A stretch of 40,190 bases of DNA from Gammaproteobacteria bacterium (GTDB lineage: Bacteria > Pseudomonadota > Gammaproteobacteria > Steroidobacterales > XN24): assembly GCA_050116375.1 (NCBI GenBank), contig JASFOT010000001.1:1-40190 (forward strand), given 5' to 3'. Every line of letters begins with the position of its first letter. Position 1 is the first letter of the stretch. Positions 15,383-40,190 of the stretch are shown here, one piece after another. A program made the position numbers and the translations under genes. A model generated the notes under the pieces. It was not told the DNA's origin and did no database searches. It saw only the letters and a list, made by a program, of their open reading frames with translations.

Positions 15383-15548
15383 TTCGCAGAGTAAACCCGC
15401 AGAACAGTTGTCTGGAGCGGGACTGTAACGCGAGCGGCAGTCCCGTGTCTCGCCGCCACCGGATATCCCGTAGTGTTAAGTCTGTCATTGTGAAGGGGCG
15501 CCGGCGGTGCTAGAAATGCCGCAATCTTTCCAGCGATGACGGTCGCGT

Positions 15549-17215: not shown

Positions 17216-17227
17216 CGCCAGAACACC

Positions 17228-17923: not shown

Positions 17924-17938
17924 GACCGGTGATGGCGG

Positions 17939-25738: not shown

Positions 25739-26018
25739 TAATACTCTCGGGACAGGCTAGCTGTGGTGATGACTGAAAGGAACCGACAGCGGCAGCCGTT
25801 TCCCTGGTTTATCTGGCAAGGCCGGAGCCTCTCGGGGCACCCCTGGCGAGATCGCGCCCGGGGTCCGCGCGCCCCGTCCGGCGGGTACCGGAGGCGCAGA
25901 GTTTTTCATATTTTTCGGCAAAGTGTAGCAGGAGACACGGAGCCAGCCGTCTCCGGATTGAGTCGAACGGCAACAAATAGTGTAATTGTCGTAACCGATC
26001 ACCGACCGGTGGGGCACA

Positions 26019-27038
26019 ATGTCCTTGTCGTCGTCGGCCCGCGGTAAACCAGCCCGATTCCGACCCGGAATTTTCAATACCATGTACCACACCATTCTGA
26101 AAAAAGCCTCGCGCTTCCTGGTGATGAAGTCGGTCTTCTTCCTGCCGCGCGAACGACGCATCGCCATCGAGCGCCGGCATCGCGGACGGGAGCAGTACGG
26201 CAAGCTTCGACGGGCTGATTACACGGTAGTTTCGTTCGGCAAGAGCGGCCGCACCTGGCTCCGCGTCATGATTTCCCGGGTATTTCAGGTCAAACACGAT
26301 TTGTCCACCGGCGCGCTGCTTTCCTTCGACAACTTTCACCGCCGTGATTCCGCGATACCGACGGTGTTTTTCACGCATGACAACTACATCCGTGACTACA
26401 CCGGCAGCACAGATGTGCGATCCGACTATGGGGATCGCAAGGTCGTGCTCCTCGTGCGACATCCGGCCGACGTTACGGTCTCCCAGTATTTCCAGTGGAA
26501 GCACCGCATGAAGAGCCGGAAAGTGGACCTCCTGGAGTTCCCCGGCCGGGACCGGGAGATCAGCCTCTACGAGTTCCTCATGGACCCGAAATTCGGGCTG
26601 GTGCGAGCCATCGATTTCATGAATCTCTGGGCGCGGGATATTCCGAGCCTCGAACATTTCCTGATGGTCAGATACGAGGACCTGCGGGCCGATCCCGGCG
26701 CCGCTCTTGACAAGGTTCTGCAGTTCATGGGAACGACCGCCACCGAAGCCGAACTCAGGGACGCGGTGGAATTCGGTTCCGTGGAAAACATGCGAAAGAT
26801 GGAGCAGAAAGGAAGTTTCTGGCTCAGCGGCGGCCGCATGAAACCGCGTGATCGTGACAATCCGGATTCCTACAAGGTGAGGCGCGCCAAAGTCGGTGGA
26901 TACCGGGATTACTTCGACGACGAACAGGCGGCCCGTATCAGTGAGCTGCTGGAATCACGGCTTTCCCCGATCTATGGCTATACCAGACAGTCGCCCGACG
27001 CCACCACAACCCCGGAAACCCGCAAGGCCACCGCATGA
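26019..27038 (+). CDS. PAPS-dependent sulfotransferase family protein (paralog 1)
   Basis: 5'-PSB loop FGKSGRTWLRV and 3'-PB region LVRHPADVTVSQYF, plus RYEDLRADP and YKVRRAKVGGYRDYF, which are shared with the two paralogs. The alternative start ATG 26082 (MYHTILKK) matches the paralog N-terminal lengths better. Confidence 0.8.
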   Translation: MSLSSSARGKPARFRPGIFNTMYHTILKKASRFLVMKSVFFLPRERRIAIERRHRGREQYGKLRRADYTVVSFGKSGRTWLRVMISRVFQVKHDLSTGALLSFDNFHRRDSAIPTVFFTHDNYIRDYTGSTDVRSDYGDRKVVLLVRHPADVTVSQYFQWKHRMKSRKVDLLEFPGRDREISLYEFLMDPKFGLVRAIDFMNLWARDIPSLEHFLMVRYEDLRADPGAALDKVLQFMGTTATEAELRDAVEFGSVENMRKMEQKGSFWLSGGRMKPRDRDNPDSYKVRRAKVGGYRDYFDDEQAARISELLESRLSPIYGYTRQSPDATTTPETRKATA

Positions 27039-27994
27039 ATGACGCCAGACAGAAACCGCCCCCGGAATCGGAGAAGAACGGAGCCGATACCGTGAAACCC
27101 TGCGTCTTCATTCACACCAACGAAAAGCAGATGCTCGGCGCGCTGGTATCCCGTTACTCGTTACGTAGAAACAGCGCGCACGCAGATCGTTTCGACATCC
27201 GTTTCATCGAGGCGGGCGCGCAGGCATTTATGCTGGAGCGTGAAGGCCAGCTATACCTCCGTGACGGGGAAAAACGACCCTGGCTGAACGACGATCTGCA
27301 GTCATTCACGCCGCTGCGATTCATGCCGCCGGAACTCATGGGTTACCGGGGAAGGGCCCTGGTTATCGATCCGGACATTTTTGCGGTCAGGGACGTATGG
27401 GAGCTCTTGTCCCGGGATATGGACGGCAAGGCCATCATGTGCCGTCCCAAGTCAGGCTCGAAGGGCAAACGCGGTGCCCTGGCCTCCAGCGTAATGCTGC
27501 TGGATTGCGCCAGACTCACGCATTGGAAAGTGGCCGAGCAGTTCGCGGAAATGTTCGATTTCAGCCGGGATTACATGGACTGGATCTCACTGAAACTCGA
27601 GGACCGGAGCACGATCGGTCTTTTCGGCCCCGAGTGGAACGATTTCGACCATCTGGACGAGAACACCCGCCTCCTTCACAACACCAAACGCAAGACCCAG
27701 CCCTGGAAGACAGGTCTGCCGGTCGATTACCGGCCCGCCGACACTTTCCGGCTTTTTCCGCCCCGACACTGGATACGTCGGGCACGCCGTGCCCTGTTCG
27801 GCGATTACCGTTTTGCAGGGCGCTACAAGGAGCACCCGGATCCGCGGCAGGAACAGTTCTTTTTCGGCCTTCTTAGGGAATGCATGGACCAGGGAATCGT
27901 CGATGAATCGCGACTGCGGCAGGAAATGAGCAACAATCACATCCGCCACGACGCGCTGGAGATAATAGCCAGAACGCCCCCGCTGGCAGCATGA
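27035..27994 (+). CDS. GT8-like (GT-A fold, DxD) glycosyltransferase with conserved C-terminal extension (paralog a)
   Basis: By-eye alignment to the LgtC/GT8 pattern. CVFIHTNEKQ...IRFIEAG matches IVFAADDNY...IRFHVLDAG. SFTPLRFMPPEL..GRALVIDPDIFAVRDVWELL is the DxD region. SSVMLLDCARLTHW matches NAGVLLINLKKW. HNTKRKTQPW matches H..G..KPW. The ATG overlaps the stop of sulfotransferase 1 (ATGA). Confidence 0.68.
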   Translation: MNDARQKPPPESEKNGADTVKPCVFIHTNEKQMLGALVSRYSLRRNSAHADRFDIRFIEAGAQAFMLEREGQLYLRDGEKRPWLNDDLQSFTPLRFMPPELMGYRGRALVIDPDIFAVRDVWELLSRDMDGKAIMCRPKSGSKGKRGALASSVMLLDCARLTHWKVAEQFAEMFDFSRDYMDWISLKLEDRSTIGLFGPEWNDFDHLDENTRLLHNTKRKTQPWKTGLPVDYRPADTFRLFPPRHWIRRARRALFGDYRFAGRYKEHPDPRQEQFFFGLLRECMDQGIVDESRLRQEMSNNHIRHDALEIIARTPPLAA

Positions 27995-28034
27995 ATTAGC
28001 GGCTGCGGTAACACGCTCTGGGACTCGGATTCCC

Positions 28035-29018
28035 TCAGGGCGTGCCCGATTTTTCCTGCTCCGGTTGTGCCGGCAATTCCTGAGGCCGGGCCCGGTCTTC
28101 GTCGGTCGCCGGCACGCTGCTGTAGCCAAACCGCGAATCCAGATCCCGCTCCAGCATGGCATCGATCTGCTTTACCTGGTCATCGGTGAAATAATCCCGG
28201 TATCCGCCGACTTTGGCCCGGCGAACCTTGTAGGAATTCGGATTGCCCTTCTCTCCCGGCACCAGCCGCCAGCCGGTACGCCACAACGGGAAGGAGCTTT
28301 TCTCCTCCATCTTCTTGAGATTGTCGAAGGCCGCGAATTCCACTGCGTCACGAACCTGCTCTTCGCTTGCGGGGGTTCCCGTGAAAGCGAGTATCTTCGC
28401 CAGCACTGCGCCGGGGTCTGCGCGCATGTCCTCGTATCGAATCACCAGCACGTCACCCAGTCTAGGGACCCATTCCAGCCAGGCATTGAAGTAGCTGATG
28501 ATCCTGGGCAATCCCTGTTCCGGGTACATCACGAAGTCGAAAACGGACATCTCTTCGCCGTGGGCCGGGTAGTCATTCAGGCGTTTCTTGTGGGGCCGCA
28601 TCCGATACCGCCACTGGAAATACTGGGAGACCGCCACGTCCCGGGGATCCCGGACGAGAAACACGATTTTCTTACCCATGAAATCGATCTTCGTGTCATA
28701 GCCGTGACCCGTGTAGTCGCGCAGATAATTGCCGTGGGTGAAGAAGATCCTGGGAACCCGCCTGTCCATGCGATTCAGGTTATCGAAATCCAGCATGTGG
28801 TAGTCGGGGAGATCGAACATCAGCTGATAGACGCGTGACAGCATGACGCGCAGCCAGGTCCTGCCGCTCTTGCCCCATGAAACCAGCAGCCAGTCGGCCC
28901 GGTGCAGTTTCCGAAATTCTTCCCTGCCCCGAAGCCTGCGATCGATGGCCTTTCGTTGGGAATACGGCAGAAAGAAAAGCAGCGCGAGCTTCGCGTGCCT
29001 GGACAGGGCTTCCCACAC
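28035..29018 (-). CDS. PAPS-dependent sulfotransferase family protein (paralog 2)
   Basis: 327 aa with a GTG start: WGKSGRTWLRV, LVRDPRDVAVSQYF, RYEDMRADP and YKVRRAKVGGYRDYF. Confidence 0.8.
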   Translation of the reverse strand: MWEALSRHAKLALLFFLPYSQRKAIDRRLRGREEFRKLHRADWLLVSWGKSGRTWLRVMLSRVYQLMFDLPDYHMLDFDNLNRMDRRVPRIFFTHGNYLRDYTGHGYDTKIDFMGKKIVFLVRDPRDVAVSQYFQWRYRMRPHKKRLNDYPAHGEEMSVFDFVMYPEQGLPRIISYFNAWLEWVPRLGDVLVIRYEDMRADPGAVLAKILAFTGTPASEEQVRDAVEFAAFDNLKKMEEKSSFPLWRTGWRLVPGEKGNPNSYKVRRAKVGGYRDYFTDDQVKQIDAMLERDLDSRFGYSSVPATDEDRARPQELPAQPEQEKSGTP

Positions 29019-29295
29019 GGCTGAGCGTCCTATAGAACCAAATTCGCGGACTGTTCCGACCGGTCCGGCAGTGACGCGGACCGACCTCGATCGCTGCGCC
29101 TCCGGAACTCCGCCCGCGGGACTCCCGGCGACCCCGGAAGGATAACACGTCGATACCTCTTCGCCCCCCTCGCCGACAACGATTTCGGCCAGTTCCGCGA
29201 TGGAGCCGCAGCGTTTCCCGAGTGGCTATTCGAACCCGATCCCGGTACCCTTTCTCCATCCCAGGCAAGGGCTCCGGCCCTCGAGGAATGAAGCC

Positions 29296-29934
29296 ATGAC
29301 CGTGCTCGATCTAGGCGCCATAGACGCAGCACCCCTTCAGACAGATCCCTTTGATTTTCTTGTAGTTCCCGGCTGCATTCGTCCCGATGACCTGACCGCG
29401 ATCAACGGGGACTATCCGAATATTGATCGACCGGGGAATCTCAATCCGGAGGACACCCGTTACGGCCCGCTTTTCCAGGGCTTTCTGCAGGAACTGGAGG
29501 GCGAGGAACTCGCTCGACACCTGGGGCGCAAGTTCGGCGTGGATCTTACCGGCTGCGGGACGACAGTGACCGTGCGAAAGTACTGTGAGCAGAGCGACGG
29601 CAACATTCACACCGATCACCCAAGCAAGATCATCACGGTGCTGGTGTATTTCAACGAGGGATGGGCCAATCCCGAGGGACAGCTCAGGATGCTGCGCTCG
29701 TCCTCCGACATCGAGGATTATGCGGCGGAGGTGCCGCCGCTCGGCGGGACGCTGCTTGCGTTCCGACGCACCGATCACTCCTACCACGGACACAAGTCAT
29801 TCGTGGGCGAGCGCCGTATGGTACAGATGAACTATCTGAAATCCGGGCGTCTGTCCCAATGGAAACAGCAGATCGATCGATTCGGCACCCGGACCATGAA
29901 AAAGGCCCTGCGCCTGCTGCAACCCGGCGCCTGA
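29296..29934 (+). CDS. 2-oxoglutarate/Fe(II)-dependent oxygenase family protein
   Basis: Track ORF 29200..29934 trimmed to ATG 29296 (MTVLDLG). It has an HxD facial-triad motif (NIHTDHP), a distal His (SYHGH) and a downstream Arg (ERRMVQMNY), in a 2OG-FeII_Oxy-like layout. Confidence 0.72.
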   Translation: MTVLDLGAIDAAPLQTDPFDFLVVPGCIRPDDLTAINGDYPNIDRPGNLNPEDTRYGPLFQGFLQELEGEELARHLGRKFGVDLTGCGTTVTVRKYCEQSDGNIHTDHPSKIITVLVYFNEGWANPEGQLRMLRSSSDIEDYAAEVPPLGGTLLAFRRTDHSYHGHKSFVGERRMVQMNYLKSGRLSQWKQQIDRFGTRTMKKALRLLQPGA

Positions 29935-29948
29935 CGGCGGCAGTCAGG
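29930..29948. terminator. Short hairpin enclosing both stop codons of the convergent oxygenase and ELM1a genes
   Basis: CCTGAC (29930-29935), a 7-nt loop, then GTCAGG (29943-29948). The 6-bp stem has no U-tract. Part of the symmetry is a trivial consequence of TGA/TCA. Confidence 0.2.
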
Positions 29949-31113
29949 TTATCTCTTTCACAAGCGCCCGGACTCTGGCCACCACCCGTGGCAGATCGTC
30001 CGGAATTTCACCCGTGGGCTGGCCCAGCGGTCTTCCGGCCTCCACAGCCAGACCTCGTTCAATCAGGAGATCGTGCACAGCCGTGAAGTCGCGGGTCCTC
30101 GGCAGGATCCGCAGACGAGCGCCAATCGCTCGCAGCAAATGCCGGATCCGGTCCCCCGCCCCGCCTTTGTCCGGCTGGTAAAGCCAGCGAGCGCCGACAC
30201 GACGGATCCGGTCAATTTTGTGCAGCCATCCATAAGGCAGGCGGAAAATCGCGAGAGGTTTCCTGAGCTTCACCACCTCCACCATCATGGAGATGCTGTC
30301 ACCGGTGACGACAAAGCCGTCCGCGAGCCCCAGGAGGGCCTGATACGGATTGCCCTCCGCACCCCTTTTCCATTCGAAAAAACGGGCGCCCTCCGGCAGC
30401 CCTTCCCGGAGAGCATTCACCACTCGCGGAGGCGTCCTCGGACTGGTCGTCACATAGGGCGTGCCCCCGTCCCGTTCGATCACCTCCCGCGCCGTCTCGA
30501 TCAGTCCTTCCCTGACCTGCCTGTCGAACATGAACGGATTCGTCGGCCCGCCGACCAGAATGCCGATCAGGGGCCGCGGAAGATCCGAAAGCCTCTCGCG
30601 CCACTCTTCGGTGGCGGAACGGATCCGTTCCTCGTCAACCTTCAGCAGGGGAAGAGAAATCCGCATAACGTTGGGCGTCGGAGCGATCTGCACTTCGGCG
30701 CTGGTAATGATCAGGGAGAACGGATCGCTGGATCCCGAGGGCTTGCCCACCAGCACGAGCTTCGTCCGGCCTCCCGACTGCTCGCGGATCCAGAGGGCTA
30801 CCATGGACAAACGCCGACCGACGGTGATGACGACATCAGGCCACGGCGGCGAAAGTGGATCCGAGTTCTCCAGATCCAGGTGATGAAGCGACGGGATGAC
30901 CTTGGGCTTGCCCTTGATCCAGGGAGCCTTGACTCGAACATATCGCCTTTCGCAGGGCATCCCCAGCGCCGCGACAAGATTTTCCACCTGAGCATTGTCG
31001 CCGAGACGATCGCCGACGATCATCCATATCCGTGGCGGGGATGAATTCGAACGCAATCCGTCCGGCGTGCCGACGGCCCCCGGACCGTCCGTCGCTGCCT
31101 CCCGGTGTGTCAT
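29944..31113 (-). CDS. ELM1/DUF1022 family protein, putative GT-B-type glycosyltransferase (paralog a)
   Basis: The track ORF starts at TTG 31125, and the first ATG is at 31113 (MTHREA). Motifs shared with the other two paralogs: IWMIVGDRLGDNAQV, PWPDVVITVGRR, GILVGGPT, TTSPRTP, NPYQALLGLADGFVVTGDSISMMVE. Confidence 0.72.
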   Translation of the reverse strand: MTHREAATDGPGAVGTPDGLRSNSSPPRIWMIVGDRLGDNAQVENLVAALGMPCERRYVRVKAPWIKGKPKVIPSLHHLDLENSDPLSPPWPDVVITVGRRLSMVALWIREQSGGRTKLVLVGKPSGSSDPFSLIITSAEVQIAPTPNVMRISLPLLKVDEERIRSATEEWRERLSDLPRPLIGILVGGPTNPFMFDRQVREGLIETAREVIERDGGTPYVTTSPRTPPRVVNALREGLPEGARFFEWKRGAEGNPYQALLGLADGFVVTGDSISMMVEVVKLRKPLAIFRLPYGWLHKIDRIRRVGARWLYQPDKGGAGDRIRHLLRAIGARLRILPRTRDFTAVHDLLIERGLAVEAGRPLGQPTGEIPDDLPRVVARVRALVKEIT

Positions 31114-31155
31114 CGACTGCTGCAACTGCCGGTCCGTTTTCCCCGTCGGAATCCG

Positions 31156-32130
31156 TCAGCCCGACGCGGTGGCGGGCTGGGAAGCCTCCTCGTCCGCCGG
31201 ACCGTATCCGAGACTCGGCGAGAGCCGTGCACGGACGATTTCCTCCAGTTCGGCGACCTGCTCCGGTGTAAAGTAATCCCGGTATCCGCCAACCTTGCCA
31301 CGACGCACCTTGAAAGTATTGGGGTCCTTGGGATCACGGAGCGTCAGGCCTCCCTGGCGGAAAAACCCCTTGGTCTCAAGCTGACGAAGATTGTCGAAAG
31401 AGCCGAAACGAACGGCTTCCTGGATCTCGTCGTCGCTGAAATCCCGTTCCATCAGTTCAACTACGCGCCTGAGATTCTCGGCCGGCCGGGCGCGCAGATC
31501 CTCGTAGCGCAGGACCATCCCGCGGTCGAGAGCCGCGACGTTCCGCTCCCAGGTATTCAGGTAATCCACCAGAAACGGCAGCCCGATATCGCTGTGCCGG
31601 ACAAAATCCCACATGCCAATGGTGCGTCGATCAATGGGATGATCGATGAAATGGTTGATCAGCTCCTGCTTGTGCCGCGACTGTCGTTTTGTGAACTGGA
31701 AAAACCATGAAACCGCGATGTCGCAGGGATGACGGGCGATGAAAAGAACGGGCTTGTGGCGAAGATCGGAGTCCGGCGCGCCCGGCGCCAGCGCTTCACC
31801 GATGATGCCCTCGTAGCTGTAATAACCGTTACTCGCGGCGAGCCGCGGAATCTCGGGATGTTTCAGCGCCAACTCGTCTGTGTTGATAAGCCGGGAGGCG
31901 GGCAGGCCGTACCGGACCTGAAACAGCCGGGAGATCATCACCTTGAGCCAGGTGTTCCCGCTCTTGGGATGACCGATAATGAGCAGCTGGGCCCGACGGG
32001 CCTTGGCCAGCTCCAGTCTCGCCAGATGACGGCGACGTATGGAGACGCGCTGACGTGCCGGAAGTGGGTAAGTCGGCAGCAAGATAGACCATTTCTTGAC
32101 GCCGTCGCTGATCCTGAGCATGTGAGTCAC
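31156..32130 (-). CDS. PAPS-dependent sulfotransferase family protein (paralog 3, most divergent)
   Basis: 324 aa with GTG 32130 or ATG 32121 as the start: GHPKSGNTWLKV, IARHPCDIAVSWFF, RYEDLRARP and FKVRRGKVGGYRDYF. Confidence 0.8.
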   Translation of the reverse strand: MTHMLRISDGVKKWSILLPTYPLPARQRVSIRRRHLARLELAKARRAQLLIIGHPKSGNTWLKVMISRLFQVRYGLPASRLINTDELALKHPEIPRLAASNGYYSYEGIIGEALAPGAPDSDLRHKPVLFIARHPCDIAVSWFFQFTKRQSRHKQELINHFIDHPIDRRTIGMWDFVRHSDIGLPFLVDYLNTWERNVAALDRGMVLRYEDLRARPAENLRRVVELMERDFSDDEIQEAVRFGSFDNLRQLETKGFFRQGGLTLRDPKDPNTFKVRRGKVGGYRDYFTPEQVAELEEIVRARLSPSLGYGPADEEASQPATASG

Positions 32131-32354
32131 CGATGTCAGGAGCCAGGCGGCGGAGGTGCCGGCGCCGGTCCTGGCCCAGTTGGAATGAAGTCAGCCGCCT
32201 ATTATGGGCCAGCCCTGGTCAGATCGCCACCTGCGACACCGGTTGCGGGTAACGGCGGCGCGGGTCCGGTCACCCCCCGGCGACCGACCTGCCGGATGTC
32301 ATACAATCCCGCCGGCGCCCCGCATGGATTGAACGCCTCGTCTCGACAGATTTC

Positions 32355-33452
32355 ATGAACCAGCCATCCCAACCGGATCTGCAAGCGGGAGCGACCGTCA
32401 TAGCGTCCCGGCCCCAGCCCCTGGTCTGGGTCATCTCCGGGTACAGGGCGGGTGAAACAACCCAGTTACTGGCGCTGGCGGAGGCACTGGGATGGCCCTT
32501 CGAGGTCAAAGAACTCCGCCATCGCCGCTGGGATTTCGTCCCGGGCCTTCTTCGTCTCAGCAGCCTGGCCGGAATCGAAAAAGCGGCACGGGAGGATCTC
32601 CGGGCTCCGTGGCCGGATCTGGTGATAAGCGCCGGCATGCGGAACGAACCGCTCGCGAGATGGATCAAGGACCGCGCGGGAGGAGAATGTCGCCTCGTCA
32701 ACGTGGGAAGGCCCTGGGCGGGCTTCGATCATTTCGATCTTGTGATTACGACGCCCCAGTATCGCCTGCCCGAACGGCCCAATATCCTCCAGAACATCGG
32801 CACCATGCATCTGTTCACCGACCACGCGCTGGCCGCCGCCGCACGGCGCTGGAAACCGGAATTCGAGCACCTTCCCGGGCCCTACATCGGAGTACTCATC
32901 GGCGGCCACAGCGGCCCGTATACGTTGGGCCCGGCCGCGGCCCGGCGACTGGCCGTCGCTGCCGGGCGATTGGCCCGGGAGATGGAGGGATCACTTCTGG
33001 CCACCACCAGTTCCAGAACATCCGCCGCCGCCACCGAGGCCTTTGCCGGGGCTCTCGACTGCCCGCACTACCTTTTCAGGTGGTCGCCGGACTCCATCCA
33101 GAACCCCTATCAGGGCATCCTGGCTACCGCCGATCTGCTGATTGTCACCAGCGACACGGTGTCGATGATTTCGGAAGCCGTGGGCACCGGCAAACCTGTT
33201 TTTGTCTTCGACCTGGACGGCGACGACGACTTTCGCCTGGGCGCGCTTTTCTACCGCCTCCTGATGCGCGTCGGGCATCCCCGCCTCACCCGGGATCTGG
33301 AATTATTTCATCGTCGGCTCACAGAGACGGGCCGGGCCGCCTGGCTGGGGGAGTCGCTGTCGAAAGTCAGGTCCGAGCCCCTGGACGATCTGGCGCGGGC
33401 GGTGACCCGGGTTAAGGCGCTCGTCACCAGCCGCGATTCCCGAAACGCTTGA
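32355..33452 (+). CDS. ELM1/DUF1022 family protein, putative GT-B-type glycosyltransferase (paralog b)
   Basis: 365 aa: VWVISGYRAGETTQL, PWPDLVISAGMR, GVLIGGHSG, TTSSRTS, NPYQGILATADLLIVTSDTVSMISEA. Confidence 0.72.
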   Translation: MNQPSQPDLQAGATVIASRPQPLVWVISGYRAGETTQLLALAEALGWPFEVKELRHRRWDFVPGLLRLSSLAGIEKAAREDLRAPWPDLVISAGMRNEPLARWIKDRAGGECRLVNVGRPWAGFDHFDLVITTPQYRLPERPNILQNIGTMHLFTDHALAAAARRWKPEFEHLPGPYIGVLIGGHSGPYTLGPAAARRLAVAAGRLAREMEGSLLATTSSRTSAAATEAFAGALDCPHYLFRWSPDSIQNPYQGILATADLLIVTSDTVSMISEAVGTGKPVFVFDLDGDDDFRLGALFYRLLMRVGHPRLTRDLELFHRRLTETGRAAWLGESLSKVRSEPLDDLARAVTRVKALVTSRDSRNA

Positions 33453-33673
33453 TATGAGACGCAGACACCCGGGCCCCGCCAGGCCCCGCGCCACGGGACC
33501 GGCGAATACATCCGGCGGCGGCGATTCCGGGCAATTCACCCCGGCCGGCATACGCGGTAACATACCGGTCGGGCGGACACGGGATTGTCCCATCCGCCGG
33601 GAAGCTGTTGGTCCGCACTATTTGCGCATCAAGACATCGGCTCCACAGCCCGAAGAACGACAAGGGAGTTTCG

Positions 33674-33928
33674 ATGGCCACCTATGAAGAGTGCCTGAAG
33701 ATAGTCCGGGATGTTCTGGGCGATCAGCTGGAACCGGGGAAAACAGCCGACGAAAAAGATGCTCTGGTAGCCGATTTGGGAATGGGATCCCTGCAGATGC
33801 TGGAGCTCGTAGTGGAAATCGAGGACCTTCTCGACATCAGCCTGCCGCTGAACCAGTTACCCGAGATCCAGACCGTGGAGGATTTTGCCCGGATGCTGGA
33901 ATCGGTTTCTGCCGGATCTTCCCAATGA
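33674..33928 (+). CDS. Acyl carrier protein (dedicated, SPT-associated)
   Basis: Track ORF 33608..33928 trimmed to ATG 33674, which follows AAGGGA. 84 aa. LVADLGMGSLQMLELVVEIEDLL aligns with E. coli ACP [23 protein letters not shown], with Ser at the phosphopantetheine position. The stop overlaps the spt start (ATGA at 33925-33928). Confidence 0.8.
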   Translation: MATYEECLKIVRDVLGDQLEPGKTADEKDALVADLGMGSLQMLELVVEIEDLLDISLPLNQLPEIQTVEDFARMLESVSAGSSQ

Positions 33929-35127
33929 GCCTTTTTGACAAGTTTGCGCCCCTGTCGAACCTTCGGAGCGATCTGCTCGAGCACGGCATCCTGCCGTTCG
34001 GAGTGGTAACCGAGAAGATTCTCTCTCCCACCGAGGGTATCGTGGATGGCCGCAGGACCATACTTGCCGGTACCAACAATTACCTGGGTCTGACCTTCGC
34101 CCCCGAGTGCGTGGAGGCCGCCCGCAAGGCATTGTCCGAAGAGGGCACCGGCACCACCGGCTCCCGCATGGCCAACGGCACTTACGGAGCCCACGCTGCT
34201 CTGGAGCGAGAACTCGCCGAGTTCTTCGATCGTGAACACGCGCTGGTTTTCACCACCGGATTTCTGGCCACGATGGGCATGGTGTCCACGCTGGCGGGGC
34301 GCGGTGATGTGCTGCTTATCGACGCCGATTCCCACGCCAGTATCTACGACGGCTGCCGGCTCAGCGGGGCCGAAGTCATCAGGTTCCGCCACAACGATCC
34401 CAAAGATCTCGATAAACGCCTCGGGCGGCTCGGAGACCGCAGCGGCAACACCTTAGTGGTAGCCGAGGGTCTGTACAGCATGCTGGGCGACCAGGCGCCC
34501 CTGCAGGAAATTGTCGATGTCAAGGACAAACACGGCGCGATCCTGCTGCTGGACGAGGCCCATTCCATGGGCGTTTTCGGTGATCGCGGGCGCGGCCTGG
34601 CTGAAGCCGCAGAGGTCGAAGACCGGGTCGACTTCGTCGTGGGGACGTTCAGCAAGAGCCTGGGCTCCGTTGGGGGCTTTTGCGTCAGCAACCATCCCGA
34701 ACTGGAGCTCGTCCGGATGGCGGCGCGGTCCTATATATTCACGGCGTCACCGACTCCGTCGGTGGTGGCGTCGACTCGTGCGGCCCTGAAGATGATCAGC
34801 GATCATCCTGAACTGAGAGACCGTCTCTGGGACAATTCGCGGCAACTGTATGACACCCTTGCCCGGGCAGGTTTCCAGCTGGGCCCGCAACCAGGTCCGG
34901 TCGTGGCTGTCTTTGTCGACGATCCGAAACGGGCAGTGTCATGGTGGCACCGACTCCTCGAACAGGGCGTTTACGTGAACCTGGTGATCCCGCCGGCGAC
35001 GCCCAGCACCAGTTGCCTGCTCCGTTGCAGTATCAGCGCGGCCCACACCCGGGAACAGGTGGACCGGATTTCAGAGGCCTTTGTCTCGCTGCTCCCGAAG
35101 CGCCAGGCGGCGGGCTCCGCAGTCTAG
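33925..35127 (+). CDS. spt: Serine palmitoyltransferase (alpha-oxoamine synthase family, PLP-dependent)
   Basis: Track ORF 33691..35127 trimmed to ATG 33925 (MSLFDKF). 400 aa. Long collinear matches to remembered Sphingomonas paucimobilis SPT: SPTEG.V.G..TIL.GT.NY.G.TF, DADSHASIYDGC....AE.IRFRHN...DLDKRLGRL, G.YSMLGD.APL.E.V.V..KHGA.L..DEAHSMG.FG..GRG, DFVVGTFSKS.G.VGGF.VSNHP, YIFTAS.PSVVA, LLRCSI.A.HT. These are much closer than to the Kbl encoded at 453..1643. Confidence 0.88.
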   Translation: MSLFDKFAPLSNLRSDLLEHGILPFGVVTEKILSPTEGIVDGRRTILAGTNNYLGLTFAPECVEAARKALSEEGTGTTGSRMANGTYGAHAALERELAEFFDREHALVFTTGFLATMGMVSTLAGRGDVLLIDADSHASIYDGCRLSGAEVIRFRHNDPKDLDKRLGRLGDRSGNTLVVAEGLYSMLGDQAPLQEIVDVKDKHGAILLLDEAHSMGVFGDRGRGLAEAAEVEDRVDFVVGTFSKSLGSVGGFCVSNHPELELVRMAARSYIFTASPTPSVVASTRAALKMISDHPELRDRLWDNSRQLYDTLARAGFQLGPQPGPVVAVFVDDPKRAVSWWHRLLEQGVYVNLVIPPATPSTSCLLRCSISAAHTREQVDRISEAFVSLLPKRQAAGSAV

Positions 35128-36857
35128 GTTTCTCCGGAAGCCCGATCACGTTTGGGCGCCGCGCCCGACTCGTGGGACTCCAGTCTCCCTTCCACCATCC
35201 GATAGACGGTATTCGAGAACTCAGCCAGCGCTGGCTGATGAGAAACCGCCACGATTGTGATCTCCCGCGCCAACGCCTTCAGTGTCCTGCAGATTTCTGC
35301 CTCGCTTTCGGCGTCAAGAGCGCTGGTAGCCTCATCCAGCACCAACAGCCTTGGCCCGTGGACGAGCGCCCGCGCCAGCATGATTCGTTGCCTCTGCCCG
35401 GCAGAGACCCTCGCACCACGTTCACCGACGCTGGTATACATCCCTTCGGGCATTGACTCGACGAACGACCACGCATCTGCCTTTTCCAGGGCCCTGCGGG
35501 CGTCGGCTTCGGAGAGGTCCGGATCTCCGAGGGTCACGTTGTTGAGAATCGTATCGTGCAGCAGGACAGTATCCTGGGGCGCATAGCCGATCTGTTTCCT
35601 CCACTCGTGGAGGTTGACGGAATCCAGCGGAATCCCGTCGATTCGCACTTCACCCGTATCCGGCGAGTGCAGACCGGCAATAAGATCGAGTATGGTGGTC
35701 TTCCCCGAACCGGATCGGCCGATGATTGTCGTCAGCCCTCGGGTCGGAATTCGCAGGTCGACGTTTTTGAGAACCGGCTCTCCCTCGTAACTGAAGGAGA
35801 CGTCGTCCAGCACGATTTCCCGATCCAGGCCAGGCGCCGGTGCGCCGCCATATTCCTCACGCTTGGCGTCGGCTTCCTCAACAGCCTGGAGCATCGACCA
35901 GTAGGCGCTCTCCGCCGCCACCATTTTCTGATAGTGCTTCTGTATCTTTCCCAGATGCGCCAGAACCCGGGTCAGCACCAGAACCAGTACCAGAACCTCG
36001 GCAATCGGCATGCCCCAGCGTTCGAGCAACAGGAAGATACCTGCCGCTATTACGACCGCGAACATGGGTTCCTGGGCCGAGGTCAGCATGGCCTTGCTGA
36101 ACACCTCCTTTTCCAGCGCCTTGTTGAGCCGACCGGTCTCGGTTCTCAGCACGTTATCCGCCAGGCCCTCCCGTCCCATGGCTTTGAGAGTCTTGACCGA
36201 GTGAAGCGTATCGGTCATACGCGACAACAGGGATCTCAGCAGGACCGTCTGTCGCTTTCCGGCCTTGCGGGTCATTTTCACAAGGAAATGCGACACGAAG
36301 AGAATCACGAAACCCGCGGCCAGCGAGGCAAGGGTCGCCCGCCAGGAAACCATCATGGCTACCGATCCGTAGATGACAGCCTGGATGCCGTAAGCCACGA
36401 TGCCGACGCCGAATTCGTAGGCGATCGAGGCCCGCCATGCCTCCGTCGCCATGCTGTTGGTGAGCCGACCCACCGGCTGATGAACAAAATAGCTCCAGCG
36501 GCTGGACATCACGGCCCTCAGCAGACGCAGCCGAAGATCCGTGGTCACCCGGGCCTTTGTGTACCCGACCTGCCGCTCCGCGACGAGCAGCAGAATACTT
36601 TTCAGAAAGATCCCGAGGACCGCCACCACCAGCAGGTTACCGATCGTCGGCGTGATTCCCGCATTGGTGAGAAATTCCGTCACCTGCCTGGCGAATTCGG
36701 ACTGCTGACCTCCATCTGCCCCGCTGTCCACGGCAAGGCTCAGTATGGGCAGCAGCACCGAGATGCTGGAGCCTTCCGCCAGCCCGGCCAGCAAAAGCGC
36801 CGCGACCATCAGGAGGCTCTGCCAGGGATAAGCCCGGGTGAAAGTGACGAGAATCAT
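35124..36857 (-). CDS. ABC transporter, fused permease/ATPase exporter (MsbA-like type I exporter)
   Basis: 577 aa with six N-terminal TM helices followed by an NBD. The NBD has Walker A GRSGSGKTT, Q-loop, signature VSAGQRQR, Walker B LLVLDEATSALD and H-loop VSHQ. Confidence 0.9.
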   Translation of the reverse strand: MILVTFTRAYPWQSLLMVAALLLAGLAEGSSISVLLPILSLAVDSGADGGQQSEFARQVTEFLTNAGITPTIGNLLVVAVLGIFLKSILLLVAERQVGYTKARVTTDLRLRLLRAVMSSRWSYFVHQPVGRLTNSMATEAWRASIAYEFGVGIVAYGIQAVIYGSVAMMVSWRATLASLAAGFVILFVSHFLVKMTRKAGKRQTVLLRSLLSRMTDTLHSVKTLKAMGREGLADNVLRTETGRLNKALEKEVFSKAMLTSAQEPMFAVVIAAGIFLLLERWGMPIAEVLVLVLVLTRVLAHLGKIQKHYQKMVAAESAYWSMLQAVEEADAKREEYGGAPAPGLDREIVLDDVSFSYEGEPVLKNVDLRIPTRGLTTIIGRSGSGKTTILDLIAGLHSPDTGEVRIDGIPLDSVNLHEWRKQIGYAPQDTVLLHDTILNNVTLGDPDLSEADARRALEKADAWSFVESMPEGMYTSVGERGARVSAGQRQRIMLARALVHGPRLLVLDEATSALDAESEAEICRTLKALAREITIVAVSHQPALAEFSNTVYRMVEGRLESHESGAAPKRDRASGET

Positions 36858-37029
36858 GGACGATGTGCCGGCAGCCTGTGGACCAATGCGCTCTGGCCGG
36901 GCCGCCGTTTGACTCCGTGGATGGCGATGCTCGCGCTGTGGACCCGAATTATAACCCCAGGTCCGTCATGCATCGTTCCGTGCTGTAGCATTGCCGGTCT
37001 ATGACCGGGCTCGATAAATTCCGTCCCTC

Positions 37030-38145
37030 ATGAACGACCCTGCAAACCCGCCGCCGGGTACCGAGGCACCAGCCGTCTGGGTCCTGCTCGGCCACAAGGC
37101 TGGGGACAACAATCAGGTCATCGCCCTGGCGGAGAGCCTCGGGGTCCCGTTCGCGGAAAAACGCATGCGTTATCGACCCACCGAACTCTGGAGCAACCTG
37201 CTCCTGGGTCCGAATCTGCTGGGGATAAGTCGCGTTTGTGCGGGACAGCTGAGGCCACCCTGGCCGAAGCTGGTCATATCTGCCGGTCGCCGGAACGAGC
37301 CGGTCGCCAGGTGGATACGGCAACAGGCCGGGCCCGCCGTACGCCTGGTTCACATCGGTCGACCATGGGCGCGTCCGGAGCGTTACGACCTGATCATTTC
37401 CACGCCGCAGTACTGCCTCGACCGTTACCCGAACGTCATGATCTTCGAACTGCCCCTGCACCGGATCGCAGAGGATCGTCTGGAGATGGCCGCGCTGACC
37501 TGGCGTGACCGGCTCGCCCACCTGCCGGCGCCGCGGATCGCCGTCCTGGTGGGGGGGGAATCCGGCGGATTCCATCTGGATCGGGCAAAAGCTGCGCGGC
37601 TTGGGCGGGAGGCCGATCGCCTGGCACAAGGTCTGGGCGGATCGCTGATGATTTCGACCAGCGCGCGAACCCCGCGGCATGCAGCCAGGGAACTGACCGC
37701 TGAACTGCGCTCACCCTTCTTTCTTTTTGATTGGCATGCCGGGGGCGCGGACAACCCCTACCTGGCTTTTCTAGCCATGGCAGATCGGTTCATCGTCACC
37801 GGCGAGAGCATGTCGATGCTGACCGAGGCCTGCGCCACCAGGCGGCCTGTCTACATCTTCGATATGTCCGACAGGCCGGGCTCGGGTCGGGAATCAGCGC
37901 CTGCAGACCTGTTCGGACGCATCGCCAATTCGCTCCGCTACCGCGCCATCACCCACCGCCTCGCGCAGCATCTGGCGCCTGTCAGGATGCGGCGCGACGT
38001 ATCACGGCTGCACCGCGCGCTGATCGGCTCCGGTCGGGCAGCGTGGCTGGGTGAGGAATTTCCCCAAGCGCCCCCGCCTCCCCTGCCGGACGCCACCGGC
38101 GCCACCGAGAGGGTGCGGGAGCTGCTGGAATCGCGACAGCGGTGA
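37030..38145 (+). CDS. ELM1/DUF1022 family protein, putative GT-B-type glycosyltransferase (paralog c)
   Basis: 371 aa: VWVLLGHKAGDNNQV, PWPKLVISAGRR, AVLVGGESG, STSARTP, NPYLAFLAMADRFIVTGESMSMLTEA. It is closest to paralog b. Confidence 0.72.
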   Translation: MNDPANPPPGTEAPAVWVLLGHKAGDNNQVIALAESLGVPFAEKRMRYRPTELWSNLLLGPNLLGISRVCAGQLRPPWPKLVISAGRRNEPVARWIRQQAGPAVRLVHIGRPWARPERYDLIISTPQYCLDRYPNVMIFELPLHRIAEDRLEMAALTWRDRLAHLPAPRIAVLVGGESGGFHLDRAKAARLGREADRLAQGLGGSLMISTSARTPRHAARELTAELRSPFFLFDWHAGGADNPYLAFLAMADRFIVTGESMSMLTEACATRRPVYIFDMSDRPGSGRESAPADLFGRIANSLRYRAITHRLAQHLAPVRMRRDVSRLHRALIGSGRAAWLGEEFPQAPPPPLPDATGATERVRELLESRQR

Positions 38146-38169
38146 CCCTGTCGCTTCCGAGCCCGCCCC

Positions 38170-39105
38170 TCAGGCGGGGAGCTCCATGGGCAGACTCGGC
38201 GCCGGGGCCAGGGGCGGGGTCCTGTCAACGACTTCGAGCGCATCGTGGCGAACGTGGTTCTTCGACATTTCCTGCCGGAGCATCTCTTCGCTGATGACGC
38301 CCGTGTCCAGACACTCCTTCAGCAGACCGAAGAAAAAGCGCTCCTGGTTCGGATCCGGATGCGCCTTGTAGTTGCCGAGAAAGGCGTACTCACCAAACAG
38401 CTTGCGACGAGCCCGCATCGCCCACGCGACGGGCGGGAACAGCCGGAATCGCTCTGCCGGGCGCCAGTCGGTCGGCAAACCGGTTTTCCACGGCTGGGTC
38501 CTCCGGCGAGTGTTGTGGAGCATCTTGGTCTGACGGGTCAAACGATCGAAATCGTTCCATTCAGGCTCGAAAAAGCCGATGGATTCTCTGTCCTCGAGCT
38601 TCAGGCAGATCCAGGGCTGATAGTCGCGCTTGAATTCGAACATCTCACGGAATCCCTGCTCCGCGTCCCAGTGTCGCAGCTTCGCGCAATCCAGCAGCAT
38701 GACGCTGCTCGCCATACACTTGTCGATGTATCCCTTGGGCCCGGACCTCATCCGGCACATGACGGCCTTGTCTTCCATGTCGCGGCTGAGGAGTTCCCAG
38801 ATATCACCGACGGCGAAAATGTCGGGATCGATAACGACGGCCCGTCCCTGGTAGCCCATAAGTTTCGGCGGCATGAAACGCAGCGGCGTAAACGACTGCA
38901 GGTCGTCGTTCAGCCAGACCCGCTGGACGCCGTCCCGCAGATACATCCTGCCTTCGTGTTCCTGCAGCCAGGGGTAGTCCGCCGTGTCGATGATCTGGAC
39001 ATCGAATTTGTCGGCATTGGGAGAATTCCGCTTGAGTGCGTACTTGGCCACCAGCGCACCGGTGATCTGTTTATGGTTCGTATGGATGAATACGCAGTGA
39101 TCCAC
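38170..39105 (-). CDS. GT8-like (GT-A fold, DxD) glycosyltransferase with conserved C-terminal extension (paralog b)
   Basis: 311 aa, collinear with 27035..27994 over its whole length and roughly two-thirds identical by eye. Shared blocks include WLNDDLQSFTPLRFMPP, VIDPDIFAV.D.WELLSRDM, ASSVMLLDC, TQPWKTGLP, HPDP.QE.FFFGLL.EC and LRQEMS.NH.RHDALE...RTPPLA. Confidence 0.68.
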   Translation of the reverse strand: MDHCVFIHTNHKQITGALVAKYALKRNSPNADKFDVQIIDTADYPWLQEHEGRMYLRDGVQRVWLNDDLQSFTPLRFMPPKLMGYQGRAVVIDPDIFAVGDIWELLSRDMEDKAVMCRMRSGPKGYIDKCMASSVMLLDCAKLRHWDAEQGFREMFEFKRDYQPWICLKLEDRESIGFFEPEWNDFDRLTRQTKMLHNTRRRTQPWKTGLPTDWRPAERFRLFPPVAWAMRARRKLFGEYAFLGNYKAHPDPNQERFFFGLLKECLDTGVISEEMLRQEMSKNHVRHDALEVVDRTPPLAPAPSLPMELPA

Positions 39106-39261
39106 GGCTGCATACCTCGCGCAACTTCGTCAATGACGCCGGCCGGAGAAAGCCCGTGGCTGTCCGCATCGGCTGCGGCATCTCAATGTGCCCAACCGCA
39201 TATTATCGCTTTAACCACCTCATCTTGCGACCTGCCCGGGGGCAGGCGGCGCTGAGGCGCC

Positions 39262-40190
39262 TTATCTCAGAACTCCGCGCCGATACAGTCGCCAGAGCTC
39301 TCCCCAGACGTGAAGCCACGGGCGTCGCCTGACCCGCTCCGGAATCTGCACCGGAACGCCGCTGTGGCGCTCCAGTTTCCAGGCAGCGTAATCCAGCCCG
39401 CCTTCGAATGTGGCAAGGGCTTTCAGCCAGCGCGCCGGACTCATGAGTTTGCCTGTGATCCTGCGTGTCGCCCAGGCGAGCCGGGCGCCGCGGACCCGCC
39501 ACGGCGACACCGAACTGATGAATACCGCCTGCCCTCCCGTGTCCGTCATATCCAGCCCCAGACTCGGGGCCAGCGACGCGGTCAGGCTCCGGTAAAACTG
39601 CGCATTGTCCTCGACCAGCTCCCTCGACCGGCTGCCGGATTCGGGCCGCAGCTCGGTCCCGTAACTCAGTTCCAGCGCGCCGGTCCAGATCTCCAGCGCG
39701 TCCGCCGGCGACCGGGCCAGCGGGATGGTGCGCCTAAGCAGGGTTTCCGCGGCTGCCGCGAGACACCCGACGACGGCCTCCCGGGCCGAAGGGTCGCGGG
39801 CGTATGCCAGAAGACACGGCTGCGCGAATCGGCCCCAGAGGTAAGGGTGAAACCACTTGCCTCCCGTGCCCCGGCGGAAATCCCGGAGACTGATCACGGC
39901 GTACTTGGCGCGGATCTTCCCCCCCTGATCCTCGATCTCCATGTAGCCCACCGATGGCGGAAGAACCGCCGCCAGGAGCCTGTCCCGAACCGTTCTGTAG
40001 GCGGCTGCGTAGGACGTCACGATGACGTAGAGATCCACGATTCCGTCCCGCGGATCGTTCTTCCTGAGGCAGGATCCGTAGAAGACGACCGCAGAAACCG
40101 CGTCTCCGAAGCGCTGGCACATTTCGCCAGCCAGCATGTCGATAGCCCGGGGAGCGGCCTGATTCGAACGGGCGCGGATGATTTTTTCGG
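39262..40190 (-). CDS. Tam41/Mmp37-like nucleotidyltransferase-fold protein (possible lipid-phosphate cytidylyltransferase); N-terminus beyond window edge
   Basis: The track ORF is 39262..40137, but the frame stays open to base 40190 (EKIIRARSNQAAPRAIDMLAGE...). By-eye matches to remembered yeast Tam41 follow. VVFYGSCLRKNDPRDGIVDLYVIV matches FVFGYGSGVFEQ...IDIILGV. AKYAVISLRDF....PYLWGRFAQP matches VKYGVVSMETLLKD...FYLAGRLQKP. LELSYGTELRPE matches ALSYAGDIRYK. GGLDYAAWKLER matches KSIKYAWAKKLK. Confidence 0.55.
   Translation of the reverse strand, partial: EKIIRARSNQAAPRAIDMLAGEMCQRFGDAVSAVVFYGSCLRKNDPRDGIVDLYVIVTSYAAAYRTVRDRLLAAVLPPSVGYMEIEDQGGKIRAKYAVISLRDFRRGTGGKWFHPYLWGRFAQPCLLAYARDPSAREAVVGCLAAAAETLLRRTIPLARSPADALEIWTGALELSYGTELRPESGSRSRELVEDNAQFYRSLTASLAPSLGLDMTDTGGQAVFISSVSPWRVRGARLAWATRRITGKLMSPARWLKALATFEGGLDYAAWKLERHSGVPVQIPERVRRRPWLHVWGELWRLYRRGVLR

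Follow-up and report, generated by a model that had tools for sequence, protein, structure and literature searches.

The window analysed here, a 40190-nucleotide stretch from the assembly of an uncultured sediment gammaproteobacterium (GCA_050116375.1, contig JASFOT010000001.1, positions 1 to 40190 of the forward strand), ends in a gene cluster for which a first-pass annotation had proposed the synthesis of a sulfated glyco(sphingo)lipid. Open reading frame (ORF) listing and profile searches place 13 consecutive genes at 26019-40190, none of them housekeeping, just as that annotation had described. They encode three sulfotransferases of the type that uses 3'-phosphoadenosine 5'-phosphosulfate (PAPS), three ELM1/DUF1022 proteins, two GT8-like proteins, a 2-oxoglutarate (2OG)-Fe(II) oxygenase, an acyl carrier protein (ACP), a serine palmitoyltransferase (SPT), an ATP-binding cassette (ABC) half-transporter and a Tam41-like protein. 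The flank upstream of them (1-25738) is housekeeping in character, with kbl/tdh-like genes, a TRAP transporter, trmD, ffh, radA, alr, dnaB, rplI, rpsR, rpsF, rlmB and rnr. The window contains a known kind of sphingolipid core into which ten extra genes are inserted, and the tailoring genes are interleaved with the sphingolipid genes, the ABC half-transporter, ELM1_C and GT8-like B genes sitting between spt and the cpgC-like gene. Probably, this region holds most of a cluster of ~21 kb and 18-19 genes that would synthesize and export a lipid resembling lipopolysaccharide (LPS) on a ceramide base.

The core begins with a dedicated, AcpR-like ACP of 84 aa (33674-33928, forward strand; PF00550, PP-binding), whose ORF reads DLGMGSLQMLEL and overlaps the start of the SPT gene at 33925 by 4 bases. 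SPT (33925-35127, forward strand, 400 aa) scores 631 bits against the NCBIfam equivalog NF047599, for which the cutoff is 500, matches PF00155 at E=3e-57 and carries the motif TFSKS around the pyridoxal phosphate-binding lysine. A coupled ACP and SPT pair had been called here before, and the pair is real; a 77-aa ORF at 33454-33687, also considered for the ACP, is in the wrong frame, with an Arg/Pro-rich translation and no Pfam match. Among 53 SPT-centred loci from GTDB, ACP lies upstream of SPT in most, and ACP, ligase, reductase, Tam41-like, phosphoesterase and nucleotidyltransferase genes recur beside SPT, as do LptF/G genes; a GNAT protein of ~385 aa, bCerS-like by position, stands there in 21 of these loci. 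The last gene of the window (39262-40190, reverse strand, 5' end beyond the window) encodes the Tam41-like (CpgC/CC_1161-like) protein. Its Tam41-like label is favoured by its homologs beside SPT in 14 of the 53 loci and by yeast Tam41 (6ig2) as the best PDB match of a profile built from 11 homologs, but that match is weak (E=0.089) and the protein matches no Pfam or NCBIfam family.

What lies beyond position 40190 is seen on a metagenome contig of 190 kb (ERZ27279932 k141_7240222), which matches the window at 99.8% identity over 16.3 kb and was retrieved by exact look-up of SPT and GT8-like B (stretches L001 and L060; all loci are labelled in this way). The cluster runs on for ~6.6 kb to a tRNA-Leu(CAG) gene (L060 2172-2258), which is its far border in this organism and the only RNA element that Rfam finds across it. 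The full Tam41-like gene (L001 15338-16321, 327 aa) is followed by a metallophosphoesterase, an NTP_transf_3 nucleotidyltransferase, a spacer of ~800 nt, a fatty acyl-AMP ligase and a 320-aa epimerase-family reductase, downstream of which come a 305-aa secreted protein, the tRNA-Leu gene and a GFO_IDH_MocA-PhyH fusion. The ligase is AasR-like (NF006624, 803 bits against a cutoff of 600), and the reductase is CerR-like, being 40-46% identical to proteins beside SPT in 27 loci. The first-pass annotation had noted that neither a ceramide synthase (bCerS) nor a ketosphinganine reductase (CerR) was visible in the window; as regards CerR, the worry over an incomplete pathway falls away, since a CerR-like and an AasR-like gene follow a short way beyond position 40190, and bCerS is taken up below. 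The 305-aa protein (L060 2324-3241) has a signal peptide, no family match and weak homologs (27%) in Haliea-type clusters; considered as a bCerS, it was rejected as a secreted protein that belongs to no recognized family. The spacer (L001 18130-18936, roughly equivalent to 42054-42860 of the window) separates the divergent nucleotidyltransferase and AasR-like genes and holds no convincing ORF and no Rfam match. The dioxygenase fusion, of 623-626 aa, borders the cluster in two lineages that differ in their gene order (L060 271-2142 and L068 16754-18634) and is probably a further tailoring enzyme.

The claim of three paralogous PAPS-type sulfotransferases is confirmed by profile scores above the Pfam cutoff for PF00685 (Sulfotransfer_1) in SulfA (26019-27038, forward strand, with a likely start at 26082 that gives 318 aa; E=8e-22), SulfB (28035-29018, reverse strand; E=6e-25) and the divergent SulfC (31156-32121, reverse strand; E=3e-22), and by their mutual identity, 49% for SulfA and SulfB and 34-36% for SulfC against both. 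All three carry (G/P)KSG(R/N)TW, R-x-P-x-D-x-x-VS and RR(A/G)KVGGYRDYF, corresponding to the 5'-phosphosulfate-binding loop, the 3'-phosphate-binding region and a GxxGxW-like motif. In SulfA the loop reads FGKSGRTW and is accompanied by FFTHDNY and RRAKVGGYRDYF; SulfC, in which the PF00685 match covers the C-terminal two-thirds, keeps PKSGNTW and RRGKVGGYRDYF. FFTH[DG]NY, a putative form of the THxP-type motif that holds the catalytic histidine, stands in SulfA and SulfB at the spacing expected from STHIPY of SOT18, in a segment where the HMMER alignment is unreliable. The PDB matches of all three are cytosolic SULT-type enzymes, for SulfB for example SOT18 at 1e-11. SulfB has homologs in 5487 clusters at 90% identity (E<=1e-10), and SulfA orthologs are 53-83% identical in L064, L066 and L067. 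The stop of SulfA overlaps the start of GT8-like A by 4 bases. The segment with SulfA, GT8-like A and SulfB (26001-29000) has the lowest G+C content of the window, 0.586-0.588 against 0.59-0.66 in most of the rest, a faint hint that this sub-module was separately acquired.

The five glycosyltransferases predicted in the first-pass annotation hold as such at the level of fold alone. GT8-like A (27035-27994, forward strand) and GT8-like B (38170-39105, reverse strand), which are 66% identical to each other, had been called a pair of GT8-like DxD paralogs; the paralogy and the motif are confirmed, but membership of the family at sequence level is not, as neither has a Pfam or NCBIfam match and the best score against GT8 (PF01501) is E=0.24 (11 bits), for one paralog, the other giving no match at all. 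Since sequence searches of the PDB yielded no meaningful match for GT8-like A or ELM1_B, structures were predicted. An AlphaFold2 model of GT8-like A, built from 31 homologs, has a mean predicted local distance difference test (pLDDT) score of 80 and a predicted template modelling (pTM) score of 0.81, and its top Foldseek matches in the PDB are all retaining enzymes of GT-A fold from families GT8 and GT24 (3tzt, XXYLT1, LgtC, WbbM, GlyE, LARGE1, UGGT and glycogenin). The DPD motif (residues 112-114) is invariant in 31/31 sequences. The family is large, with 6501 homologs (clusters at 90% identity), and among the matches listed all that carry a name are called 'hypothetical'. GT8-like B is the best conserved protein of the cluster, with 78% identity in Haliea. 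An alphaproteobacterial metagenome-assembled genome (MAG) with a canonical Caulobacter-type sphingolipid cluster also has a GT8-like gene (L013 19302-20210), and this is 68-69% identical to those of the window while its SPT is 58% identical, which suggests horizontal transfer of the GT8-like gene between sphingolipid producers.

The three paralogous ELM1/DUF1022 proteins, by contrast with the GT8-like pair, are recognized by their Pfam family (Mito_fiss_Elm1, PF06258), with E values of 2e-49 for ELM1_A (29944-31023, reverse strand), 4e-63 for ELM1_B (32355-33452, forward strand) and 2e-64 for ELM1_C (37030-38145, forward strand), and they are 32-43% identical to one another. The AlphaFold2 model of ELM1_B (pLDDT 88) has a GT-B fold, with GT1 UDP-glycosyltransferases, the galactolipid synthase MGD1 and MurG among its Foldseek matches (E ~1e-7), and all three are accordingly predicted GT-B glycosyltransferases. 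ELM1_B adjoins the ACP-SPT pair in eight other loci (L008, L012, L020, L067, L069, L070, L075 and L141), even where no other cluster genes are nearby (L012 and L020). The Haliea orthologs of ELM1_A and ELM1_C are 54% and 49% identical. In L117 (12008-14413) an ELM1 domain occupies residues 434-698 of an 801-aa protein whose N-terminal ~430 aa have no assignment.

The 2OG-Fe(II) oxygenase (29200-29934, forward strand, with a likely start at 29296 that gives 212 aa) matches PF13640 (2OG-FeII_Oxy_3) at E=2e-7, in agreement with the earlier call, and shows the motif HTD...H. It adjoins the ELM1_A ortholog in all related clusters examined, and SulfB in all except L133. The ABC half-transporter (35124-36857, reverse strand), a candidate flippase, has ABC_membrane and ABC_tran domains, that is, a transmembrane and a nucleotide-binding domain in one chain, and is the only cluster protein with transmembrane helices, the biosynthetic proteins having none. 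Its description as an MsbA-like exporter is right as to architecture but not as to identity: it falls below all NCBIfam cutoffs, scoring best against HepA (277, cutoff 725), then against MsbA TIGR02203 (234, cutoff 602) and PRK11176 (188, cutoff 867). Orthologs 47-88% identical stand beside SPT or ELM1_B in L008, L064, L066, L067, L069, L070, L075, L121, L137 and L141. Genes for LptF/G are embedded in the clusters of L067, L070, L008 and L075, and in Caulobacter LptF2/G2/C2 are required for sphingolipid transport (bioRxiv 10.64898/2026.04.12.717747).

The same gene set is found, in differing orders, in seven more loci (L064-L070), which were traced by way of SulfB, GT8-like A and ELM1_B homologs, both close and distant. 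Three of them (L064, L065 and L066) keep the order of the window beside rnr, with SulfB identities of 83-70%. In Haliea sp. E17 (L067; GCA_048323675.1) the order is Metallophos, SPT, ACP, ELM1, ABC, LptF, LptG, SulfC, ELM1 and 2OG oxygenase, continuing with SulfB, SulfA, GT8-like, ELM1, GT8-like, Tam41-like and the ceramide-kinase-like DAGK. Two complete gammaproteobacterial MAG chromosomes add further arrangements. The Chromatiales-labelled CP070671 (L068) has sulfotransferase, GT8-like, sulfotransferase, 2OG oxygenase, ELM1, sulfotransferase, LpxL-like, methyltransferase and GFO/PhyH genes adjoining CerR and AasR. CP070833 (L069) has sulfotransferase, 2OG oxygenase, ELM1, sulfotransferase, ELM1, ACP, SPT, ABC, ELM1 and GT8-like genes, without those for ceramide phosphoglycerate. 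A Thiogranum MAG (L070) has SPT, ACP, ELM1, ABC, LptF, LptG, ELM1, Wzy_C, GT4, an unassigned protein and a sulfotransferase. Between the window and Haliea, the three sulfotransferase, three ELM1 and two GT8-like paralogs stand in one-to-one orthology at 49-78% identity; each paralog has its own best ortholog there, which shows the paralogs to be old and each separately retained.

A scan of metagenomes with the sulfotransferase profile gave 80 loci, of which the 24 of at least 12 kb were counted. ELM1 is present in 21/24, GT8-like in 18/24, the 2OG oxygenase in 13/24 and ABC in 12/24, and at least one of SPT, Tam41-like or bCerS-like in 14/24. In L121, L137, L141, L133 and L111 sulfotransferase genes are placed between bCerS-like, DAGK, Tam41-like, ABC and SPT genes; L141, for example, reads ELM1, ABC, nucleotidyltransferase, Metallophos, DAGK, bCerS-like, Tam41-like, ELM1, sulfotransferase, ELM1, ACP and SPT. 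An SPT-seeded scan of GTDB had pointed to independent assortment of the two groups of genes (the 53 loci, with SPT identity <=61%, hold no sulfotransferase or 2OG oxygenase). That scan used exact peptide patterns and missed the relevant lineages, and its result was overturned by the sulfotransferase-, GT8-like- and ELM1-seeded searches, which place the gene set beside SPT/ACP or AasR/CerR in six further lineages. On the question, raised in the first-pass annotation, of whether the 13 genes co-occur and stay contiguous in relatives, spt/acp and the sulfotransferase and glycosyltransferase genes are thus seen not to assort independently, with the order of the set reshuffled. The recurrence of the set and its interleaving in relatives are a strong argument against the alternative, left open by the first-pass annotation, that spt and acp are an adjacent but separate module.

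The closest known counterpart of the core is the Caulobacter crescentus locus CC_1152-1168 for sphingolipids and ceramide (di)phosphoglycerate, which encodes AasR, CerR, AcpR, Spt, bCerS, LptF2/G2 and two nucleotidyltransferases; next to spt lies CC_1161/CpgC, a Tam41/Mmp37-like protein required for ceramide phosphoglycerate, for which CpgB is the DAGK-type ceramide kinase, CpgA a CDP-alcohol transferase and CC_1158 a calcineurin-type phosphoesterase (PMC11324152 S1 Text). CDP-glycerate is made by the nucleotidyltransferase CpgD (CC_1153; PMC12275187). The present cluster shares with that locus the ACP-SPT pair, the AasR-like and CerR-like proteins, a putative, Tam41-like CpgC homolog, the CC_1158-like phosphoesterase and a CC_1153/CpgD-like NTP_transf_3 protein (PMC11324152, PMC12275187), and in its relatives the likeness extends to the ceramide-kinase-like DAGK, the bCerS-like GNAT and the LptF/G paralogs. 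The Caulobacter locus as listed (PMC11324152 S1 Text) has no sulfotransferase, ELM1, GT8-like protein, 2OG oxygenase or ABC half-transporter, and its candidate flippase is Wzx-like (CC_1166) rather than of ABC type. A CpgA-type CDP-alcohol phosphatidyltransferase (PF01066) is absent from the gene tables of L001, L060 and L064-L070, though it was not itself the object of a search. Counterparts of the Tam41-like (putatively), metallophosphoesterase and nucleotidyltransferase genes are known among the Caulobacter phosphosphingolipid genes, and the headgroup may therefore be phosphate-linked.

On these grounds we consider it fairly likely that the product is an anionic, O-sulfated, glycosylated and possibly phosphorylated sphingolipid for the outer membrane, and the pathway proposed in the first-pass annotation thereby gains in silico support from family assignments and comparative genomics. 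The ceramide core steps would follow established Caulobacter biochemistry. AasR would load a fatty acid on the dedicated ACP, SPT would join acyl-ACP and serine to 3-ketosphinganine, and an N-acyltransferase of bCerS type (none located in the ~49 kb of this organism) together with the CerR-like reductase would complete the ceramide. The headgroup would then be built by soluble enzymes on the cytoplasmic face of the inner membrane. As the constant neighbour of acp-spt, ELM1_B would most plausibly catalyse the first transfer, with ceramide or ceramide phosphate as acceptor; the headgroup may then be extended by ELM1_A, ELM1_C and the two GT8-like proteins, the latter of retaining type, and the 2OG oxygenase may add a hydroxyl. 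SulfA, SulfB and SulfC would transfer sulfate from PAPS onto up to three positions. The Tam41-like protein, metallophosphoesterase and nucleotidyltransferase, with the ceramide-kinase-like protein of the relatives, could supply a phosphate-linked element as in Caulobacter ceramide phosphoglycerate. The ABC half-transporter would flip the finished lipid, and the LptF/G paralogs, which lie in the cluster in Haliea, Thiogranum and others, would pass it to the Lpt bridge. More tentatively, and at somewhat less than even chances, several marine or estuarine gammaproteobacterial lineages (SG8_31-type sediment MAGs, Halieaceae, Chromatiales-labelled MAGs and Thiogranum) may build an LPS-like oligoglycosyl, possibly phospho-, ceramide in this way, with up to three sulfate esters, cytoplasmic assembly, a dedicated ABC flip and sphingolipid-specific LptF/G.

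Several points weigh against this reading. The families, folds, synteny and co-occurrence of the cluster genes are observed; the product is predicted from them, and the acceptors in every case, the order of steps, the number of sugars and sulfates and the destination of the lipid are what we infer from the genes, with five sugars and three sulfates as an upper bound. The Foldseek matches of GT8-like A (E 1e-8 to 1e-5, with a probability of 1.00 for the top ones) and those of ELM1_B have modest TM scores of 0.4-0.5. ELM1/DUF1022 proteins are described as having 'no known function in bacteria' (PMC10327509); no bacterial activity has been demonstrated for them, and the sole bacterial context found in the literature is the outer-core locus for lipooligosaccharide (LOS) in Acinetobacter (PMC10327509). 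SulfC and its orthologs (window 31156-32121, L066 6904-7863, L067 7030-7971, L068 13893-14855 and L069 8710-9675) retain both PAPS-binding motifs and have, in 5/5, AASNGYY in place of FFTH[DG]NY with its putative catalytic histidine; SulfC may use a different base or have a non-catalytic role. In ~49 kb of this organism (window, L001 and L060) no bCerS-like, ceramide-kinase-like (DAGK) or LptF/G gene was found. Related sulfotransferase clusters do have a bCerS-like gene (L111, L121, L133, L137 and L141), and the ceramide-kinase-like DAGK is present in Haliea L067, L075, L121, L137 and L141. No sphingolipid marker is in reach in 10/24 of the long sulfotransferase loci, and in L135 (7702-10875; LJSS01000073.1) a minimal trio of ELM1, sulfotransferase and GT8-like genes sits amid housekeeping genes (cysH, gshA, pntAB and GGDEF-EAL), and the 7-8 kb around it contain no sphingolipid gene. 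An LpxL-like lipid A acyltransferase (PF03279), absent from the window, stands beside SulfC in L066 (5790-6764), L068 (14935-15918) and L072 (6023-7021); it could acylate the glycolipid or point to LPS. The Wzy_C (O-antigen-ligase/polymerase-like) gene of L070, which lies with a GT4 gene between ELM1 and the sulfotransferase (16320-18797), likewise has an LPS flavour, and the Thiogranum variant may carry a longer glycan that is attached in the periplasm.

Part of this evidence would fit a decoration of LPS or LOS, in which the sulfotransferases, ELM1 and GT8-like proteins give rise to a sulfated core or lipid A and their proximity to sphingolipid genes comes from the clustering of outer-membrane lipid pathways and a shared Lpt machinery. 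The ELM1-family proteins GtrOC1, 14, 19 and 22 of the Acinetobacter LOS outer-core loci (PMC10327509) speak for it, as do the LOS galactosyltransferase LgtC among the structural neighbours of GT8-like A, the LpxL-like, Wzy_C, GT4 and LptF/G genes of the related clusters and the ten long loci lacking a sphingolipid marker. Yet the 13 genes of the cluster in the window and the 6 that follow on L001/L060 include no Kdo, heptosyltransferase, waa or lpx gene. Many independent arrangements mix the tailoring genes with spt, acp, cpgC-like, bCerS-like and ceramide-kinase-like ones, ELM1_B keeps its place beside acp-spt even where no other cluster gene is near (L012 and L020), and the LptF/G paralogs in Caulobacter sphingolipid loci are sphingolipid-specific (bioRxiv 10.64898/2026.04.12.717747). 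We regard an LPS or LOS target as unlikely.

Sulfate could also be placed directly on the lipid, at a hydroxyl of the long-chain base or of a hydroxy-fatty acid produced by the 2OG and PhyH oxygenases, with ELM1 and the GT8-like proteins making a separate glyco- or phospho-sphingolipid and no sugar being sulfated. The closest solved relatives of the sulfotransferases are indeed cytosolic SULTs whose acceptors are small or hydrophobic (steroids, bile salts, glucosinolates and glycopeptide aglycones, for example), the 2OG oxygenase lies near SulfB and ELM1_A, and the GFO_IDH_MocA-PhyH fusion is conserved in L060 and L068. PF00685 includes carbohydrate sulfotransferases too, however, and the trio of sulfotransferase, GT8-like and ELM1 genes travels as a unit even alone (L135 and L117), which suggests consecutive steps on one headgroup; we give direct sulfation of the lipid a rather slim chance. 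Still further from what is seen would be a non-lipid product, such as a sulfated oligosaccharide, exopolysaccharide or small molecule, made and exported by the tailoring genes and ABC half-transporter, for which SPT and ACP give an unrelated amino-ketone block. It would agree with the best score of the ABC protein being against the HepA family of polysaccharide and glycolipid exporters and not the MsbA equivalog, but SPT passes the SPT equivalog cutoff, the ceramide toolkit (AasR, CerR, bCerS-like) and ceramide phosphoglycerate genes co-cluster with it, and the window has no Wzx/Wzy, polysaccharide co-polymerase or outer-membrane polysaccharide export (OPX) gene, and we think this highly improbable.

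If the favoured reading of an O-sulfated glycosphingolipid is right, its product would resemble several known lipids, each in part. The glycosphingolipids of Sphingomonadaceae and Caulobacter (GSL-1 to GSL-4; Okino et al. 2020, cited in PMC11324152) are ceramide-anchored oligosaccharides too, and in the outer membrane of those bacteria they replace or accompany LPS. Their ceramide glucuronosyl and glycosyl transferases are of GT4 type, unlike the ELM1/DUF1022 (GT-B) and GT8-like proteins here, and their sulfation is not reported in the literature examined. With eukaryotic sulfatide synthesis by the cerebroside sulfotransferase GAL3ST1 the cluster would share PAPS-dependent O-sulfation of a glycosylceramide; GAL3ST1 belongs to a family other than PF00685, in contrast to the SULT-type PF00685 enzymes here, and the functional resemblance would be convergent. 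The sulfonolipids of Bacteroidota (capnine and sulfobacins) are also sulfur-containing, sphingolipid-like and made by an alpha-oxoamine synthase route. Their C-S bond derives from cysteate and needs no sulfotransferase, whereas the cluster has a proteobacterial SPT equivalog and three PAPS-type sulfotransferases. GtrOC1/14/19/22 of Acinetobacter baumannii, likened here by Pfam family alone (PF06258, clan GT-B), come from a surface-glycolipid locus as well, but its context is LOS and not sphingolipid (PMC10327509). In line with the first-pass annotation, which knew of no described bacterial O-sulfated glycosphingolipid pathway, none was found in the literature examined, nor was a link between bacterial sphingolipids and sulfotransferases, between Haliea and sphingolipids or between ELM1 and DUF1022; coverage was incomplete, and this is absence of evidence only.

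The upstream flank contains three features apart from the cluster. A second gene of the alpha-oxoamine-synthase family (Aminotran_1_2, E 2e-67) lies beside a Zn-dependent alcohol dehydrogenase gene at 174-2688; the pair is probably kbl-tdh, for threonine catabolism, and unrelated to spt. Genes for a Ser/Thr protein kinase, a PP2C phosphatase and an FHA-domain protein stand in a row at 15549-17923, an eukaryote-like signalling trio. Overlapping the start of the kinase ORF, ARAGORN calls a 91-nt tRNA-Ser with anticodon AGA (15481-15571), a doubtful call, as the Rfam tRNA model does not report it at gathering threshold.

The synthesis and transport of bacterial sphingolipids have recently been worked out, and the known headgroups are simple sugars or phosphoglycerate. 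The cluster occurs widely among environmental Gammaproteobacteria and leads us to predict a strongly anionic envelope lipid of a new class, and it offers testable functions for ELM1/DUF1022 and for a GT8-like family without a Pfam or NCBIfam match, as well as a candidate, the ABC half-transporter, for the sphingolipid flippase of Gammaproteobacteria. These predictions can be tested directly because a cultured carrier exists, Haliea sp. E17. If they are true, the product would be the first bacterial O-sulfated glycosphingolipid and a first function in bacteria would be known for ELM1/DUF1022, that of ELM1_B as a ceramide-directed transferase; a new GT8-like family would be defined, and sulfatide-like chemistry would have arisen from non-homologous enzymes. 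More speculatively, sulfated surface lipids may bear on cation binding, on resistance to phages and antimicrobial peptides and on sulfur cycling in sediments.

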